Source: Thermoanaerobaculia bacterium
Lineage (GTDB): Bacteria; Acidobacteriota; Thermoanaerobaculia; Multivoradales; UBA5704
Reading direction: 5' to 3'
Assembly (NCBI GenBank): GCA_044226625.1
Contig: JBGAGQ010000004.1
Span: 137,851 to 201,850 of the forward strand
DNA length: 64,000 bases
Position 1 is the first letter of the stretch. The number at the start of each line of letters is the position of its first letter. Made by a program: the position numbers and the translations under genes. Positions 1 through 6,227 of this stretch are shown here, one piece after another. The notes under the pieces were generated by a model, which saw nothing but the letters and a program-made list of their open reading frames with translations, was not told the DNA's origin and made no database searches.

Positions 1-531
1 GACGGATTCCGCCGAACGGAGGTTCCCCTTGAGCTTGGCGGCCCGCCGTGCGGCCAGGTACTCCCGCGGCGAGATTCCGGCGACGCGCAGGAACGTCCGT
101 TGAAGGTGCGAAGGGCTCGAGCCGGTTTCGCTCGCGAGGCGGGCGAGCGTGGGGGGCTCGGCCTCCGAGTCTTCCGCGGCCCGATCGAGCAGGGCGCGCA
201 CCCGCTGCGTCAAATCGAGATCGCTCGCGACCTCACCCGGCCGGCAACGGAGGCAGGCGCGAAATCCCGCGGCGAGCGCATCCGAGGGCTCGGGGAAGAA
301 GCTGACCCGCTCCCGAAGCGGCCGGCGGGAAGGACAGGAGGGGCGACAGAAAATGCCGGTCGACGAGACGGCGAAGACGAAGCGGCCGTCTTGCCCCCTG
401 TCGCGGGCGACGACCGCCGACCAGGCGGCTTCCTCGTCGAGCGCGGCGGCACGCGCCCCGGGCGTGGGCGATTTCTGGTTCGATTTCGGGTGCATCGGGC
501 GGCTCATCGGTACGGCGGTCGAGTTCCACAT
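1..531 (-). CDS. ada: Ada-family methylphosphotriester-DNA alkyltransferase / AraC-type regulator (5' part; runs off window start)
   Basis: Not in the ORF track. Manual translation from ATG 531 (AAGGAG upstream) gives ...WSAVVARDRGQDGRFVFAVSSTGIFCRPSCPSRRP...AGFRACLRCRP...SPSHLQRTF, i.e. the Ada Zn domain (CRPSC/CxRC) followed by an AraC HTH. Confidence 0.92.
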   Translation of the reverse strand, partial: MWNSTAVPMSRPMHPKSNQKSPTPGARAAALDEEAAWSAVVARDRGQDGRFVFAVSSTGIFCRPSCPSRRPLRERVSFFPEPSDALAAGFRACLRCRPGEVASDLDLTQRVRALLDRAAEDSEAEPPTLARLASETGSSPSHLQRTFLRVAGISPREYLAARRAAKLKGNLRSAESV

Positions 532-713
532 GTCGGCGTCTCCTTAGATCCTGGCGCAGGATGCCGCGGAACGCCAAGGCGTCGCACTCCGAAACTTGTC
601 GTCAAACCGCCAACCCCCGGAGGTGGTCCGATCACCGGCTCGACGGGCTACCATTGTGCCGACGGCCTGCCGCGCGGACCCGTCCGCAGGGTGGCAGAGA
701 AGGAGTCTCCAAC

Positions 714-1739
714 ATGAAGCCCCACCCCATCGGACTCATGGGGCTCGGGAGGATCGGACGCAACCTGGCCCGGATCCTCTACTCGAGCGACGAATTTCCC
801 ATCGCCGCGATCAGCGACATCGCCGATCACGCGGCGCTCGCCTATCTGCTCCGTTTCGACACGTTGCTGGGGGTCTTTCCGGAGCCGGTCTCCCTGGGCG
901 CCGACGGCCGGCTCGATCTCGCCGGACGAAGCGTCCCGATGCTCTCGGGAGAGAAGCCGGGGGACGTCCCCTGGGGCGACCTCGGGGTCGAGACGGTGAT
1001 CGAGGCGACCTCGAAATACCGTTCCCGGGGGGAGATCGAGAAGCACCTCGAGCGGGGCGCCAAGCGGGTCATCCTCTGCTCGCCGCCGGCCGATCCGCCG
1101 GACCTCACGGTCGTCGTCGGCGTCAACGACGGCGAGCTCCGCCGCGAGCACCGGATCGTCTCGAACGCTTCCTCGACCGCCCATGCCGCGGCGCCGCTGC
1201 TCGAGATCCTCGGCGACGCGTTCGGCATCGAGCGGGCGTTCCTCTCGACCGTCCACGCCTTGAGCAACCGGCAACGTCTGGCCGACGTCCCCTCCGACGA
1301 TCCGCGCCGCGGGCGCGCCGCGGCGGAGAACATCATCCCGCAGAGCAGCAACTCGGCCGAGGTGCTGGTCGGCCTCCTCCCCTCGCTCGCCGGGAAGATC
1401 ACGGGCATGGCGATGAACGTCCCGGTCGCGAACGGCTCGATCGTCGACCTCGTCTGTTGGCACGAAAAGCCGGTCACCGTGGCGGCGATCAACGACGCGC
1501 TGCGTTCGGCCGCCGCGAGCGAGCGTTGGCGGGGCATCTTGGCCTACGAAGAGGATCCGATCGTATCCTCCGACATCTTGAAGAGCACCTACTCCTCCAC
1601 CTACGACTCGCTGCTCACCATGGTGCTGGGCGAGAAAGTCTCGAAAACCCTGGCCTGGTTCGACAACGGTTGGGGATACGCGCACCGGGTCATCGACCTG
1701 CTGCGCAAGTTCCGCGCGCTCGACGGCGAGGAAGGTTGA
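714..1739 (+). CDS. GAPDH-like protein lacking the catalytic cysteine (probable pseudoenzyme)
   Basis: AGGAG RBS before ATG 714. GLGRIGR, PWGDLGV and WFDNGWGY show the type I GAPDH fold, but the active site reads SNASSTAH rather than SNASCTTN. Confidence 0.9.
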   Translation: MKPHPIGLMGLGRIGRNLARILYSSDEFPIAAISDIADHAALAYLLRFDTLLGVFPEPVSLGADGRLDLAGRSVPMLSGEKPGDVPWGDLGVETVIEATSKYRSRGEIEKHLERGAKRVILCSPPADPPDLTVVVGVNDGELRREHRIVSNASSTAHAAAPLLEILGDAFGIERAFLSTVHALSNRQRLADVPSDDPRRGRAAAENIIPQSSNSAEVLVGLLPSLAGKITGMAMNVPVANGSIVDLVCWHEKPVTVAAINDALRSAAASERWRGILAYEEDPIVSSDILKSTYSSTYDSLLTMVLGEKVSKTLAWFDNGWGYAHRVIDLLRKFRALDGEEG

Positions 1740-1744
1740 ACGAC

Positions 1745-2773
1745 ATGGACAGCGCCACGCACCGCTCGCCCACCCGCATCGGTATCAACGGCTTCGGACG
1801 CATCGGCCGGAGCGTCTTTCGCATCCTCTCCGACCGCGAGGATCTCGAGGTGGTCGCGATCAACGACCTCTACGAGAACGAGCAGCTCGCCTATCTCTTG
1901 AAATATGACTCCCTGATGCGCACCTTCCCGCGCGCGGTGAAGACCGACGACGATTTCCTCTACGTCGACGATCGGAAGATCGCGATGACCGCGGAAAAGG
2001 ATCCGGCGCAGATTCCCTGGGCCGGGCTGGGCGTCGATCTGGTGATCGAGTCGTCGGGCGTCTTCACCAAACGGGAGAAGCTCGAGAAGCACCTGACGGC
2101 GGGAGCGAAGAAGGTGGTCCTCACCGTTCCGGCGAAGGACGAGATCGACGCCACGATCGTCGTCGGCGTGAACGACGACACGCTGCTCCCCTCGCACCGG
2201 ATCGTCTCGAACGCCTCGTGCACCACCAACTGCCTGGCGCCGATCGCCAAGATCCTCGACGACTCGTTCGGCATCGTCGAAGGCTTCCTGACCACGGTGC
2301 ACGCCTACACCAACGACCAGCGTCTCGCCGACGTCCCCCACAAGGATTTTCGCCGTAGCCGGGCGGCGACCCAGAACATCATCCCGACGACCACCGGCGC
2401 CGCGCGCGCGGTGGGAAAGGTCCTGCCGAAGCTCAAGGGCAAGCTCGACGGTCTCGCCATGCGCGTGCCGGTGCCCGACGGATCGACGATCGATTTCGTC
2501 TGCCGTCTGAACGCGAGGCCGAACGTCGCGGACGTCAACGCGGCGGTGCGGACGGCGGCCGAGGGCTCCTTCCTCCGGCTGGTCGAATACAGCGAGGTGC
2601 CTCTGGTTTCCTCCGACATCATCGGCAACCCGCACTCGTCGATCTTCGACGCCCTCTCCACCCAGGCGACCGGCGACGGCTTCGCGAAGGTCGTCGCCTG
2701 GTACGACAACGAATGGGGCTATTCGAACCGCCTGGTCGACCTGATCGACCGGATGGTGGCGGTGGGAGGCTAG
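1745..2773 (+). CDS. gap: Type I glyceraldehyde-3-phosphate dehydrogenase
   Basis: IGINGFGRIGR, SNASCTTNCLAP, TTVHAYT, NIIPTTTGAA, MRVP and WYDNEWGY are all intact. Start ATG 1745. Confidence 0.97.
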   Translation: MDSATHRSPTRIGINGFGRIGRSVFRILSDREDLEVVAINDLYENEQLAYLLKYDSLMRTFPRAVKTDDDFLYVDDRKIAMTAEKDPAQIPWAGLGVDLVIESSGVFTKREKLEKHLTAGAKKVVLTVPAKDEIDATIVVGVNDDTLLPSHRIVSNASCTTNCLAPIAKILDDSFGIVEGFLTTVHAYTNDQRLADVPHKDFRRSRAATQNIIPTTTGAARAVGKVLPKLKGKLDGLAMRVPVPDGSTIDFVCRLNARPNVADVNAAVRTAAEGSFLRLVEYSEVPLVSSDIIGNPHSSIFDALSTQATGDGFAKVVAWYDNEWGYSNRLVDLIDRMVAVGG

Positions 2774-2818
2774 CCGGCCGCCCACCGCGATGCCGGCCCG
2801 GCGCGGACTACGGCCGGC

Positions 2819-3385
2819 CTACCGCCGGGCGACCGAGGTGCCCGGCTTGGCGCCGCCGAGGAGCCGGATTTGCTCGTCGATCGCCTTCGTCAGTTGCGCG
2901 CCCGCGGAGGATCCCCAGTCAATCTGCTGGTGGGCGATGCGCCCCTTGCCGTCGATCACGAAGTAAGTGGGAAATCCCTGGACGCCGTACGCGCGGCGCA
3001 GCTTGCCCTCACCATCCCAAACCTGCGTAGCGGGTGAGGGGTTGGCTTCGAGGAACAGGCGAAGCGTCGCGAGCGTCTGGTCCCCGCTCACGGAGATCAT
3101 CGTGAACTTCGCCGGGTCGTACCGCCGGACGATCGCGTCGAGCTGCGGCAACGCCGCGCGGCATGGACCGCACCAGGTGGCCCAAAAGTCGAGCAGGACG
3201 ACTTTTCCCGCCAAATCTTTGGCGTGAATCAGATGCCCGTCGACGGTCGCAAACTCGAGCGTCGGAGCCGGGATCAGGGCGGGGGCCGGGGCGGCGGCCG
3301 GTTCCGCGCCGCGCGCCTCCGCCGGCGTCACTCCCGCCCAGATCGCGAGCGTAGCGGCGAAGCAGGCGGCCGTGAGTGCTCTCAC
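2819..3385 (-). CDS. TlpA-family thiol-disulfide reductase (exported)
   Basis: Signal peptide; GKVVLLDFWATWCGPC; GFPT cis-Pro loop. Confidence 0.9.
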   Translation of the reverse strand: MRALTAACFAATLAIWAGVTPAEARGAEPAAAPAPALIPAPTLEFATVDGHLIHAKDLAGKVVLLDFWATWCGPCRAALPQLDAIVRRYDPAKFTMISVSGDQTLATLRLFLEANPSPATQVWDGEGKLRRAYGVQGFPTYFVIDGKGRIAHQQIDWGSSAGAQLTKAIDEQIRLLGGAKPGTSVARR

Positions 3386-3918
3386 GCCTTGCTCCGGCCG
3401 GCCGCGAGCTTGCCGAGCTCCGCCGTTATCGCCCGGTCGAGATCCGGTCCGTACCCGTCGCGCCAGCCGTAGAGGGTGTAGACCACTCGCCCCTCGGGAT
3501 CGATCAACAGATGGGTCGGCAGGCCCTGGACGTTGAACTGCGCGCTCAGCTGACCTCGTCCGTCCCAGACCTGATGTGACATCGGCGGATGCTGGGTGAG
3601 GAAACGCCGCACCGGCTCCTCACTCGAGTCGGCGCTGATCGAGATCCGGGCGAACGGCTTACCGGAGAGGCGTTGGGTGATCGCCTCCACTTCCGGCCGC
3701 GATTTCGCGCAGTAGCCGCACCAGGTCGCCCAGAAATCGACCAGCACGACCTTGCCGGCGAAATCCTTCGGACCGATCTCCTTGCCGTCGATCGTGCGGA
3801 ACTGGAGCGTCGGGGCCGGGTAGGGCTGGACGGCCGAAGTCCGAGTCGGAGCGGCGTCCGCGGCGAAGGCCAGCAACGCGAGGCCGCAGGCGGCGAACAG
3901 GGCATAGATTCGTTTCAC
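3382..3918 (-). CDS. TlpA-family thiol-disulfide reductase (exported)
   Basis: GTG 3918 after AAGGAG; signal peptide; DFWATWCGYC; GLPT; GTGA overlap with the downstream paralog. Confidence 0.9.
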   Translation of the reverse strand: MKRIYALFAACGLALLAFAADAAPTRTSAVQPYPAPTLQFRTIDGKEIGPKDFAGKVVLVDFWATWCGYCAKSRPEVEAITQRLSGKPFARISISADSSEEPVRRFLTQHPPMSHQVWDGRGQLSAQFNVQGLPTHLLIDPEGRVVYTLYGWRDGYGPDLDRAITAELGKLAAGRSKA

Positions 3919-4119
3919 GATCTCTCCTTCGAGTCCCAACGGTCCGAGAGGCGGTCGGCCAAAGCGGCGTGTCTCGACCGAACGGCGGGCCAAGCTGCAA
4001 ACCGCATGCACGGCTTTCGTGGCGGTGCTAGGCTCTACTCCCAACCCGATCGAGAACCCTACCCTTCCCGGTCCAGCTCCTCCATCCCTCCCTTTCCTCT
4101 ATCGAGGCAACGAGCGAAT

Positions 4120-5160
4120 ATGGCCGACGCACCCCGATTCCGGGTCCAATCCCAGTTTCTACAGCAGGTCCGCGCCAGATTCGGCAAGCTGGCCCGATGG
4201 GTCCTGCTCCTCATCATCCCTCTCGTGCTGCTGCGCGCCTGCCTGGTCACGTACGTACCGCCCGACCAGATCGGCGTCCGGCAGATCGCGTTCGGTGTGA
4301 CCAAGGGCCTACAGAAGGAAGCGGTCTATCCCGGCTGGCGCCGCGAGGTTTCCGGCTTCGAGCGGATCGAGACCTTTCCCCGCAACATCCAGGTGGTCGA
4401 GTTCACCAACAACTCTCAAGAGACGTCGGAAGGCCATCGCCAGATGGCGGCGATCCGCGTGCCGACGGTGGACGGCTATCCGGTCGACATCGACGTGACG
4501 GTCCAGTTCCGGATCGCCGATCCGTATCTGGTCGTCTCGAAGTTCGGCTTCGGCAAGAACTACGAGGACGCCGCGGTGGTTCGCCTGACCGATCCGCTCG
4601 CCAAGCAATATCTCGGCGACTTGCTCGCCGAAGAGTTCTATAAGCACGCGCGCCTAAACAAGGTGAAGTCGCTCAAGGCCGCGCTCCAAGAGCGCCTGAA
4701 GGCGAACGGCCTGCACCTGGTCGACGTGCTGGTTCGCCAGTACGACTATCCCGAGACGTTCCAAACCCTCACCGAGCAGCGCAAGCTCCAAGATCAATCG
4801 GTCCTCACCAACCGCGAGCTCGCCAAGCAAGCGGAGGTGCAGACGCGGTTGAACCAGGTGATCGCCCAGGGACAGAACCTGGTCAACGTCGAGACGGCCA
4901 AATTCGAGGCGCAGATCACCGAGATCAACGCCAAGAAGGACCTCTACGAGCGGCAGAAGCACGCCGAGGCCGACCTGCTGGTCAAATCGGCGGAGGCGAG
5001 CGGGACCGAGGCGATCAACCGCGCGCTCGAAGGCTCGGGCTCGTCGAAGCTGCTGCGCCTGCGGCGCGGCCTTGCGCTCCTCGACGCGATTCATGGGCCG
5101 ATCTACATCACCGAAGATCCGACCAACCTCGACAAATACGTCGGCGGGAACCAGAAATGA
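4120..5160 (+). CDS. SPFH/band-7 domain membrane protein
   Basis: N-terminal TM; YVPPDQIGV, TVDGYPVDIDVTVQFRI (SPFH); Ala/Glu/Gln-rich coiled-coil C-terminus. Confidence 0.85.
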   Translation: MADAPRFRVQSQFLQQVRARFGKLARWVLLLIIPLVLLRACLVTYVPPDQIGVRQIAFGVTKGLQKEAVYPGWRREVSGFERIETFPRNIQVVEFTNNSQETSEGHRQMAAIRVPTVDGYPVDIDVTVQFRIADPYLVVSKFGFGKNYEDAAVVRLTDPLAKQYLGDLLAEEFYKHARLNKVKSLKAALQERLKANGLHLVDVLVRQYDYPETFQTLTEQRKLQDQSVLTNRELAKQAEVQTRLNQVIAQGQNLVNVETAKFEAQITEINAKKDLYERQKHAEADLLVKSAEASGTEAINRALEGSGSSKLLRLRRGLALLDAIHGPIYITEDPTNLDKYVGGNQK

Positions 5161-6227
5161 AACGGCTCTCCAACCTCTCCGCCCGCCCGCTCGGCTCCGG
5201 TCTCGCGCTCGCCGCGCTGCTCCTCCCGCTCGCTCTGGCCGGTTGCGTTCCGTCCCATACCGGAGCCACGGAAGTCGGCGTTCGGTTCAACAAGCTCACC
5301 GGTAGCTATTCCGAATACCCTCCGGGCGCCACCTACTTCTTCGTCCCGGTCGTCGGGGACTGGCAGGTGTTCGACATCTCGCTCCGGAACCTCGCGATGA
5401 CGGCCGACGCGAAGTCCGGCGACCGCACGGGCAAGGACGACCTGCGCTTCAAGACTCGGGACGGCAACGACATCGAGACCGACGTGACGATCCGCTGGCG
5501 CATCGATCCGACCAAGGCCGCCTACGTCTGGAAATTCGTCGCGGGCTCGACCAACGAGGTCGAGGAGCGCCTGGTCCGGCCGCAGGCCAGGACCTACATC
5601 CGCGACGTGCTGAACCGGCTCGACTCCGAAGAGTTCTACAACCCGACCAAGCGGTTCGCTGCCGCCAACGATGCGACGCGAATCCTCGCCGCCCATCTAG
5701 AGCCATATGGCGTGTTGGTCGAACAGGTGCTGCTCGGCGACTTCCAGTTCAAGCCGGAGTATCAGGCGCTGATCAACAAGCGGAAAGAAGCCGAAAAGCA
5801 GGCCGAGAAACTCGAGTCCGAGATCAAGGCGACCGCCCAGTTGAATCAGGCGAACCTCCAGGCGAAGATCGCCGAGCTGACCGAGAAGCTCACGCGCGCG
5901 GACGGCGAATACCAGCAAGCCCAGAAGGCGGCCGACGCCTATCTCGTCCAGCGCCAACAAGAAGCGACCGCCACGCTCGCCGAAAAGAAGGCGACCGCCG
6001 AGGGAATCCGGCGCGAGCGCGATGCTCTGAACGGCAGCGCCGGCGACGCCTACGTCAACCTCCAGCTGATCGACGCGCTGCGCAAGAAAGAGCTGCGGCA
6101 GATTCCGAAGCTCCCCGGCGGCAACACGATCATCGACGGCAACCGGCTGCTCGAACAGCTCGGCCTGATCCGCTACGCGGAGCGTGCCGAAAGCGCGGCG
6201 ACCGAGAGCTCGGAGCCGCCACGATAG
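5157..6227 (+). CDS. SPFH/band-7 domain protein, probable lipoprotein
   Basis: Lipobox-like LAGC; EVGVRFNK, TRDGNDIETDVTIRWRI; coiled coil; ATGA overlap with the previous gene. Confidence 0.85.
   Translation: MKRLSNLSARPLGSGLALAALLLPLALAGCVPSHTGATEVGVRFNKLTGSYSEYPPGATYFFVPVVGDWQVFDISLRNLAMTADAKSGDRTGKDDLRFKTRDGNDIETDVTIRWRIDPTKAAYVWKFVAGSTNEVEERLVRPQARTYIRDVLNRLDSEEFYNPTKRFAAANDATRILAAHLEPYGVLVEQVLLGDFQFKPEYQALINKRKEAEKQAEKLESEIKATAQLNQANLQAKIAELTEKLTRADGEYQQAQKAADAYLVQRQQEATATLAEKKATAEGIRRERDALNGSAGDAYVNLQLIDALRKKELRQIPKLPGGNTIIDGNRLLEQLGLIRYAERAESAATESSEPPR

Follow-up and report, generated by a model that had tools for sequence, protein, structure and literature searches.

A degenerate GAPDH paralog maintained directly upstream of gap in Acidobacteriota: a candidate non-catalytic partner subunit

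The window analyzed here is a stretch of 64,000 nucleotides (nt) from a Thermoanaerobaculia bacterium (contig JBGAGQ010000004.1, assembly GCA_044226625.1), near the start of which two paralogous genes with the glyceraldehyde-3-phosphate dehydrogenase (GAPDH) fold lie in tandem on the forward strand. The first, that we call gapX (positions 714–1739 including the stop; product P0001, 341 amino acids), has a degenerate active site, and the second, gap2 (1745–2773; product P0002, 342 amino acids), is a canonical type I GAPDH gene. The main finding is that gapX belongs to a family in which the residues of GAPDH chemistry are degenerate and the gene is nevertheless maintained, linked to gap and moving with it as a pair. 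On balance, we favor the reading that gapX encodes a non-catalytic subunit, probably binding nicotinamide adenine dinucleotide (NAD(H)), of a hetero-oligomeric GAPDH formed with the downstream gap2 product. The idea of a hetero-tetramer or of NAD(H) sensing comes from gene order, translational coupling, NAD motifs, interface residues and a complex model, and it is from these that we infer a physical association, its stoichiometry, the binding of NAD(H) and an effect on activity.

Both products contain the Pfam domains Gp_dh_N and Gp_dh_C (in P0001, PF00044 with an E-value of 4.3e-22 and PF02800 with 1.8e-46) and they align end to end, up to residue 338 of 341, with an identity of 45% (152/336, E 1e-104). 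The coordinates and the domains agree with the initial annotation, which had pointed out two GAPDH-fold open reading frames (ORFs) separated by 5 nt (1740–1744, forward strand). With the NCBI equivalog model for type I GAPDH (TIGR01534, cut-off 367.2) P0002 scores above the cut-off (431.9) and P0001 below it (306.8). Residues are named here by the alignment of P0001 to the GAPDHs of the PDB (best E 5.6e-85), from which the correspondences with Cys149, His176, Arg231 and Thr208-Gly209 were obtained; the roles of these residues and their numbering follow the Geobacillus stearothermophilus GAPDH literature. At the position of the catalytic Cys149, gapX has Ser154 (codon TCG, 1173–1175) and gap2 has Cys159 (TGC, 2219–2221). 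At the position of Arg231, which binds the substrate phosphate, gapX has Asn235 (AAC, 1416–1418; GMAMNVP vs. GLAMRVP in gap2, the Arg of which is Arg240). The inorganic phosphate (Pi) loop reads QSSNSA (1341–1358) in place of the canonical TTTGAA (IIPQSSNSA vs. IIPTTTGAA), with Asn at the Gly209 position, and there is a Gly at Glu314. The codons and the PDB alignment thus bear out the Ser, the Asn and the altered Pi loop that had been described before. The same applies to the features that had been listed as kept, all of them verified in the sequence: the NAD motif (GLGRIGR), the His of TVHA (His181, CAC, 1254–1256, the equivalent of the catalytic His176 and of His186 in gap2), the S-loop (QRLADVP), the ribosome binding site and an intact frame. 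The Shine-Dalgarno-like AAGGAG is read at 700–705 (forward strand), 8 nt 5' of the gapX ATG, and that of gap2, GAGGAAGG (1728–1735, forward strand), is located within the 3' end of gapX, 9 nt 5' of the gap2 ATG.

A word-indexed search with P0001 scored 5073 homologs. The best 119 of them (68–88% identical) came mostly from metagenome-assembled genomes (MAGs) of Acidobacteriota / Thermoanaerobaculia and are named “GAPDH” (JGI) or “GAPDH NAD-binding domain-containing protein” (NCBI). Among these 119 the nucleophile column contained C in 66, N in 42, S in 10 and V in 1, while the Asn in place of Arg231, the Gln with which the Pi loop opens and the His (119/119) were invariant. We also pooled the orthologs derived from genomes and removed duplicates, obtaining a set of 118 distinct sequences in which L019, L115 and L116 were not included (the last two because the classifier placed them on the wrong side). 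In this set the nucleophile was C 86, S 13, N 9, V 3, A 3, D 1, G 1, F 1 and I 1; the Arg231 position N 107, R 6, S 2, C 2 and T 1; and the His176 position H 117 and R 1. Gly209 was found in none of the 118 (the window copy has Ser-Asn at Thr208-Gly209). The Cys-less homologs that had been suggested as worth looking for are therefore there, 32 of 118, and all 32 also lack Arg231. Their downstream partners in contrast were uniform: 112 of 112 distinct sequences have the Cys, the His, the Arg and a TGAA Pi loop. Clustering at 50% in the representative search returned a handful of gapX clusters and further degenerate clusters whose nucleophile position is V, P, N, A, S or G. The top-scoring representative of that library was a protein of 2089 amino acids (P0122, 31% identity) with four GAPDH-like stretches, which could be a fusion, a read-through tandem array or an assembly artefact.

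The four nearest orthologs (84–86% identical; L006 and L036 are the same) read SNASCTAH, with the Cys encoded as TGT or TGC. The Ser of the window genome, judging from these alignments, is particular to it and a recent change. The emphasis that the initial annotation put on this residue must consequently be shifted: the Ser is real, but it is not a trait of the family, and since the nearest relatives carry Cys the Ser alone cannot support a “dead” status. What supports it is the loss of Gly209 and Arg231 over the whole family together with a nucleophile that appears to be dispensable. Of what would refute the pseudoenzyme according to the initial annotation, half is seen: close homologs do retain the Cys, but they lack the Arg, and selection on the window copy itself is not relaxed. 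In a quick maximum likelihood (ML) tree of gapX (110 rows, 108 of them distinct, L019 included and the nucleophile column retained; no conclusion depends on L019) at least 10 changes are required at the nucleophile, 8 of them between Cys and non-Cys. We also noticed a different route of degeneration in the upstream copies of three genomes of one genus (L115–L117, genomes G206, G296 and G186, genus g7), where Cys149 is replaced by Phe, His176 by Arg and Arg231 by Asp or Asn. The TGAA Pi loop is retained in two of the three. Several genomes of genus g7 are single contigs, a finished state that suggests cultured strains.

A different type of explanation, namely that gapX is a functionless duplicate of gap in the process of decay, can be confronted with the selection data, and for practical purposes the conservation data refute it. 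Its basis would be the loss of catalytic residues and the recent Ser of the window copy. However, the frames are full-length and open in 118 of 118 distinct orthologs from two phyla, the best 119 of the 5073 scored homologs are still 68–88% identical, and over the same 70 genomes the mean column identity is 69% for gapX, close to the 73% of gap2. The ratios of non-synonymous to synonymous substitutions (dN/dS, Nei-Gojobori) are near those of the catalytic partner, which is the only comparison that is meaningful given that dS is likely saturated. For the window copy against its clade they were 0.154–0.170 in gapX and 0.114–0.148 in gap2. Among close pairs in which both copies are Cys-less they were 0.121–0.179 for gapX and 0.121–0.156 for the partner (S-S), 0.207 and 0.165 (V-V), and 0.196–0.251 and 0.204–0.206 (N-N). 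Taking every pair with dS between 0.05 and 1.0, the medians were 0.372 for gapX and 0.290 for the partner when both gapX copies are non-Cys (290 pairs), and 0.425 and 0.357 when both have Cys (896 pairs); the rows were the 110 of the tree, L019 among them. Divergence in gapX and gap2 was 14.7% and 11.2% in the window lineage, and 11.6% and 8.9% between Cys-bearing relatives. This is the same ratio with and without the Cys, indicating that the Cys was lost without a relaxation of constraint. Cys-less copies of gapX are under the same constraint as their catalytic partner. The proposal of a maintained pseudoenzyme, already made in the initial annotation, is thus well supported by a conserved family, by the lost residues and by a purifying selection that did not change after the Cys was lost.

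In 70 gapX sequences, G10, G12, R13 and G15 of the NAD motif are present in all, D35 (Asp32) in 68, N318 (Asn313) in 66 and Y322 (Tyr317) in 70. The equivalents of Ser148, Thr150, Arg194 and Arg197 are also invariant, as is His176 (70/70), while the Thr179 position is T in 63 and S in 7, and 60 of the 70 sequences have Arg195. As the NAD motif is kept, it is plausible from the sequence that gapX binds NAD(H). Ten positions are conserved within gapX and within gap2 and yet differ between the two. Several of them (9, 34, 122, 156, 235 and 319, among them the changes T to A at 156 and R to N at 235) are near the NAD or the active site in GAPDH structures. We made no use of the S-loop sequence LADVP as evidence, in spite of gapX and partner gaps having it in common, since either co-evolution or shared ancestry could account for it. 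Elsewhere LADVP was found only in four other canonical representatives (P0131, P0132, P0140 and P0224), and some partners have RLVDSP or RLGDIP.

Such a pocket could also belong to a neofunctionalized enzyme of central carbon metabolism that would use the His, Ser, Thr and Arg together with NAD in a thiol-free chemistry or on another substrate; within this explanation the Ser of the window copy may act as a weak nucleophile. In its favor are the His176 (117 of 118), the invariant Ser148 and Thr150, the nearly invariant Thr179 and Arg195, the intact NAD motifs, the Cys kept in 73% of the orthologs, and six basal members that have Cys as well as Arg231 and in which the Pi loop alone is altered. 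Non-phosphorylating relatives such as Epd likewise have an altered Pi site, and the nearest language-model (Atlas) clusters are automatically named erythrose-4-phosphate dehydrogenase, although this is a lead only. Nevertheless, we consider such an enzyme quite improbable. Asn, Val, Ala, Asp, Gly, Phe and Ile all occur at the nucleophile under a constraint equal to that of the Cys-bearing lineages, and a nucleophile that varies under unchanged constraint indicates that no function depending on it is conserved. L115–L117, with their Phe, Arg and Asp/Asn at three active-site positions, speak against it too, gapX scores 249.9 with the Epd model, whose cut-off is 530.55, and an independent enzyme would have no need for strict translational coupling to gap. 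Two specific identities were tried and rejected on their scores: Epd or erythrose-4-phosphate dehydrogenase (TIGR01532, with the values just given) and the ArsJ-associated GAPDH (257.9, below the cut-off of 450, with no arsJ among the Pfam matches of the scanned neighbors).

The linkage between gapX and gap is close to absolute. Among the contigs of one genome per species, 79 of 80 loci had a canonical gap directly downstream in the same orientation, and the 80th (L079) stops at the end of its contig. In seven of the 79 the downstream gap was confirmed by tblastn, its ORF being broken by contig ends or long-read frameshifts. Two long-read MAG contigs (L045 and L084) have the downstream gap split across frames, probably as a result of assembly frameshifts rather than as real pseudogenes. 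In a sample of 401 genomes of the phylum at least 52, including that of the window, had the tandem among the matches listed. The 45 that were checked by sequence (L019 among the first 29) had in all cases the degenerate copy upstream and the canonical one downstream (29/29 and 16/16); the remaining six, all of genus g7, were outside this check. The adjacency to gap, raised in the initial annotation as a point to be followed up, is therefore conserved wherever it can be assessed. The order is invariably gapX followed by gap, and in 124 assessable loci the pair was never split. Moreover, when the gap2 start is taken as the one nearest to the gapX stop, 74 of 80 distinct junctions have overlapping stop and start codons. 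The overlap is 1 nt in 45 of them (TAATG or TGATG) and 4 nt in 29 (ATGA or GTGA), and in the six that are left 0–3 nt lie between the two codons. Most of the 80 have a GGAGG at the same place, inside gapX at its 3' end. Of the 52 genomes with the tandem, 36 had only these two genes among the matches listed (E ≤ 1e-30), although a number of matches is not a number of copies. Searched with the Pfam GAPDH C-terminal domain, one complete Desulfobacterales genome matched only with the pair, so that the partner is there probably the sole GAPDH.

Co-expression in an operon would by itself explain the adjacency without any complex, and gapX might then be a stand-alone homo-oligomer that binds NAD(H) or a metabolite (a regulator, a buffer or a moonlighting protein) and is expressed with gap but forms a separate oligomer. 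The conserved NAD motifs and the conserved part of the anion site would fit such a protein equally. Still, 74 overlapping junctions out of 80 and an invariant order are more characteristic of subunits that are produced at a constant ratio, and no split pair was detected in the 124 loci; we regard this explanation as unlikely.

The structural model bears on the same question. The modeled complex of gap2 and gapX had a score of 0.66, against 0.42 for the best of three controls, which supports binding rather than demonstrating it. This mark is reached by 116 of 157 solved complexes and by 2 of 215 mismatched pairs, a calibration that is only rough here since the model was run with our own alignments. 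The runs agreed in at least 99% of the contacts and the pLDDT (predicted local distance difference test) of the partner was at least 91. However, GAPDH homotetramers have already been solved, so that the pass may reflect likeness only. The modeled interface (gapX residues 174–313) is more conserved than the rest of the protein (0.88 vs. 0.75), and between the two paralogs it is 67% identical compared with 43% elsewhere. The latter contrast counts against a separate gapX oligomer, while the conservation within gapX is what a homotetramer would show as well, and the complex model is blind to the difference between hetero and homo.

A weak hint about expression came from a contig of 500 nt in a metatranscriptomic library, which covers positions 1414–1913 with three differences and crosses the junction between gapX and gap2; a contig spanning two genes is no proof of one transcript, and DNA may occur in RNA libraries. 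In three sequencing runs the shares of the stretch that were covered were only 0.05–0.25. The “joints” with skipped segments that appear in these run data were rejected, as they derive from conserved GAPDH segments of other organisms, like most of the matching pieces. The scan of positions 400–3000 revealed no promoter-like site, and its sole terminator-like site (454–470) is within chance expectation.

If the hetero-oligomer that we favor is real, it would operate in the following way. The product of gapX, devoid of GAPDH chemistry, would be retained for its joint action with the canonical GAPDH that gap2 encodes. The two genes would form one unit of transcription and translation, and their coupling in most relatives would result in roughly equal amounts of both proteins. 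These would assemble through the usual dimer and tetramer interfaces of GAPDH into a mixed oligomer, in which only the gap2 subunits would have working active sites. The gapX subunits, which preserve the pocket for NAD(H) and some of the anion site, would have a structural, activating or regulatory role, for example sensing NAD(H). A bolder version, that we put forward more tentatively as a possibility somewhat short of even, is that the hetero-oligomer is obligate in many Acidobacteriota and in a Desulfobacterales lineage, with a dead NAD(H)-binding paralog that activates or allosterically tunes the live subunit in the manner of a bacterial “prozyme.”

Several observations weigh against a non-catalytic subunit of this kind. 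The Cys persists in 86 of 118 orthologs, the nearest relatives of the window copy included, and six basal gapX (L016, L018, L023, L024, L028 and L030) keep Cys and Arg231 and may be active enzymes. Their Pi loop is nonetheless changed (PSxTNAx) and their Arg195 replaced by Leu or Ser, and they may represent the first step of the series of degeneration. The conserved His176, Ser148, Thr150, Thr179 and Arg195 could mean a residual or different role in catalysis or ligand binding, and conserved second-shell changes in the NAD pocket (N9M, N34S, T122C and E319G) may bear on the affinity for NAD. A single complex model that resembles solved structures cannot separate hetero- from homo-oligomers. 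The Nei-Gojobori dS is probably saturated in these GC-rich genomes, making the absolute dN/dS values rough, and the rule by which the gap2 start was chosen favors overlaps, although the position of the Shine-Dalgarno sequence supports the choice. Finally, the window genome itself has a spacer of 5 nt and an additional GAPDH-like gene beside pgk.

This third GAPDH-like gene of the window genome (G000, contig C11; L003:1024–2037, forward strand, with pgk at L003:2130–3359) keeps the Cys, the His and Arg231. Its Pi loop is PTPTSAP instead of TTTGAA, it is found at the end of a long branch, and its TIGR01534 score of 332.7 is below the cut-off of 367.2. It may thus not be a standard phosphorylating enzyme either, and P0002 is the sole copy in this genome above the equivalog cut-off.

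By the titles of their records, the closest orthologs belong to Thermoanaerobaculia, Holophagales and other Acidobacteriota, and there are others in MAGs of Desulfobacterales/Desulfosarcinaceae (63–70% identical). Single bins are labeled Anaerolineales, Gammaproteobacteria and Multivoradales, but bin labels can be wrong. In the order to which one Desulfobacterales carrier belongs, gapX was present in 9 of 151 sampled genomes, each time with gap directly downstream, and the other genomes of the order with a match had GAPDHs only 37–44% identical to gapX. This patchy presence, always together with gap, looks like a joint lateral acquisition of the two genes. In a FastTree with 235 rows, a branch with support 100 cleanly separated 122 degenerate from 113 canonical sequences. 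With the root placed on each of four canonical outgroups, the clade of degenerate copies (support 92) was sister to a subset of the partner gaps. This is suggestive of an ancient tandem duplication after which the upstream copy diverged, at the level of resolution that FastTree and long branches permit.

In the relatives, the neighbors of the pair are often genes of sugar metabolism. L035, L039 and L042 have a phosphofructokinase (PFK) gene downstream of the pair, and L107 has one upstream. In L062 the order is iPGM-gapX-gap2-PGK-FBA (cofactor-independent phosphoglycerate mutase, the pair, phosphoglycerate kinase and fructose-bisphosphate aldolase). L080, L087 and L091 have a glycosyltransferase, an alpha-amylase, a pyruvate kinase or a phosphoglucomutase nearby, and genes of glycogen metabolism flank the pair in relatives. 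The gapX-gap2 module belongs to sugar catabolism. Compared with L035 (8068–10244), its closest relative, the window lacks the PFK segment at this place 3' of gap2 (2774–2818), and thioredoxin-like genes follow instead. L035 has in addition a gene with a DUF4351 domain 3' of gap2. On the other side of the window module there is the 5' part of an Ada-like regulator/methyltransferase gene (1–531, reverse strand; Pfam Ada_Zn_binding 1.9e-28 and HTH_18), divergent from the pair, running off the window and outside the module; L035 has the same neighbor. The genes 3' of gap2 are two tandem thioredoxin-like (Redoxin/AhpC-TSA) genes in convergent orientation (2819–3385 and 3382–4044, reverse strand) and two tandem SPFH/Band 7 genes (3589–5160 and 5157–6227, forward strand), the members of each tandem overlapping by 4 nt. 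Both types of neighbor recur in L035.

Bacterial GAPDH is generally treated as a homotetramer and is among the most studied of enzymes. If the gapX product is what we propose, an unrecognized subunit or regulator of glycolysis would exist in bacteria that are abundant in soils and sediments, and because the gapX genes are named as GAPDH in the databases, metabolic reconstructions may be counting a second GAPDH. The family is also a natural series for how pseudoenzymes arise. Under the bolder version it would record the evolution of such a subunit, with a change of the Pi loop first, the loss of Arg231 next, then several losses of the Cys and, within one genus, that of His176 too. With finished carrier genomes (the single contigs of genus g7) and small proteins that look soluble, the hypothesis is directly testable. 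In the full-text literature, a coverage that leaves out subscription journals, we found no description of a bacterial GAPDH paralog next to gap that is degenerate or has lost the Cys. A review of the ALDH (aldehyde dehydrogenase)/GAPDH superfamily mentions as a pseudoenzyme the vertebrate ALDH16, which is not a GAPDH (PMC12041015).

The known system closest in fold is the type I phosphorylating GAPDH (GapA, EC 1.2.1.12, TIGR01534; PDB 1gd1 and 1nq5 from Geobacillus stearothermophilus), with which gapX shares GxGRIGR, Asp32, Asn313, Tyr317, His176, Ser148, Thr150 and the S-loop. It differs in falling below the equivalog cut-off, in the Ser, Asn, Asn and Gly that the window copy has at Cys149, Arg231, Gly209 and Glu314, and in a nucleophile that is free to vary. 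Epd (also called GapB), a thiol-dependent GAPDH paralog of gamma-proteobacteria (TIGR01532), is often located beside glycolytic genes, but many members of the gapX family have no Cys and gapX is under the Epd cut-off. The A2B2 GAPDH of chloroplasts is a regulatory hetero-oligomer of two paralogs (GapA and GapB), both catalytic, in which GapB has a C-terminal extension; A- and B-chain PDB entries of the plant enzyme were among the matches of P0001. Unlike plant GapB, gapX has no C-terminal extension (341 amino acids) and lacks catalytic and substrate-binding residues. The parallel with the plant enzyme that the initial annotation had drawn would hold for the hetero-oligomer but not for the catalysis, and it is a loose one because both plant subunits are catalytic. 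In bacterial luciferase the tandem paralogous genes luxA and luxB encode a heterodimer with the active site in one subunit, a different fold and function that provides an analogy only. The trypanosomatid prozyme is a catalytically dead paralog that heterodimerizes with S-adenosylmethionine decarboxylase (AdoMetDC) and activates it (PMC6221367). It is a eukaryotic protein with a different fold, from a different pathway, and its genes do not lie side by side; what it has in common with gapX, as we propose it, is a dead paralog paired with a live sister enzyme. Pseudoenzyme partners are already known as a kind, and a partner subunit of a bacterial GAPDH would probably be an apparently undescribed member of it.

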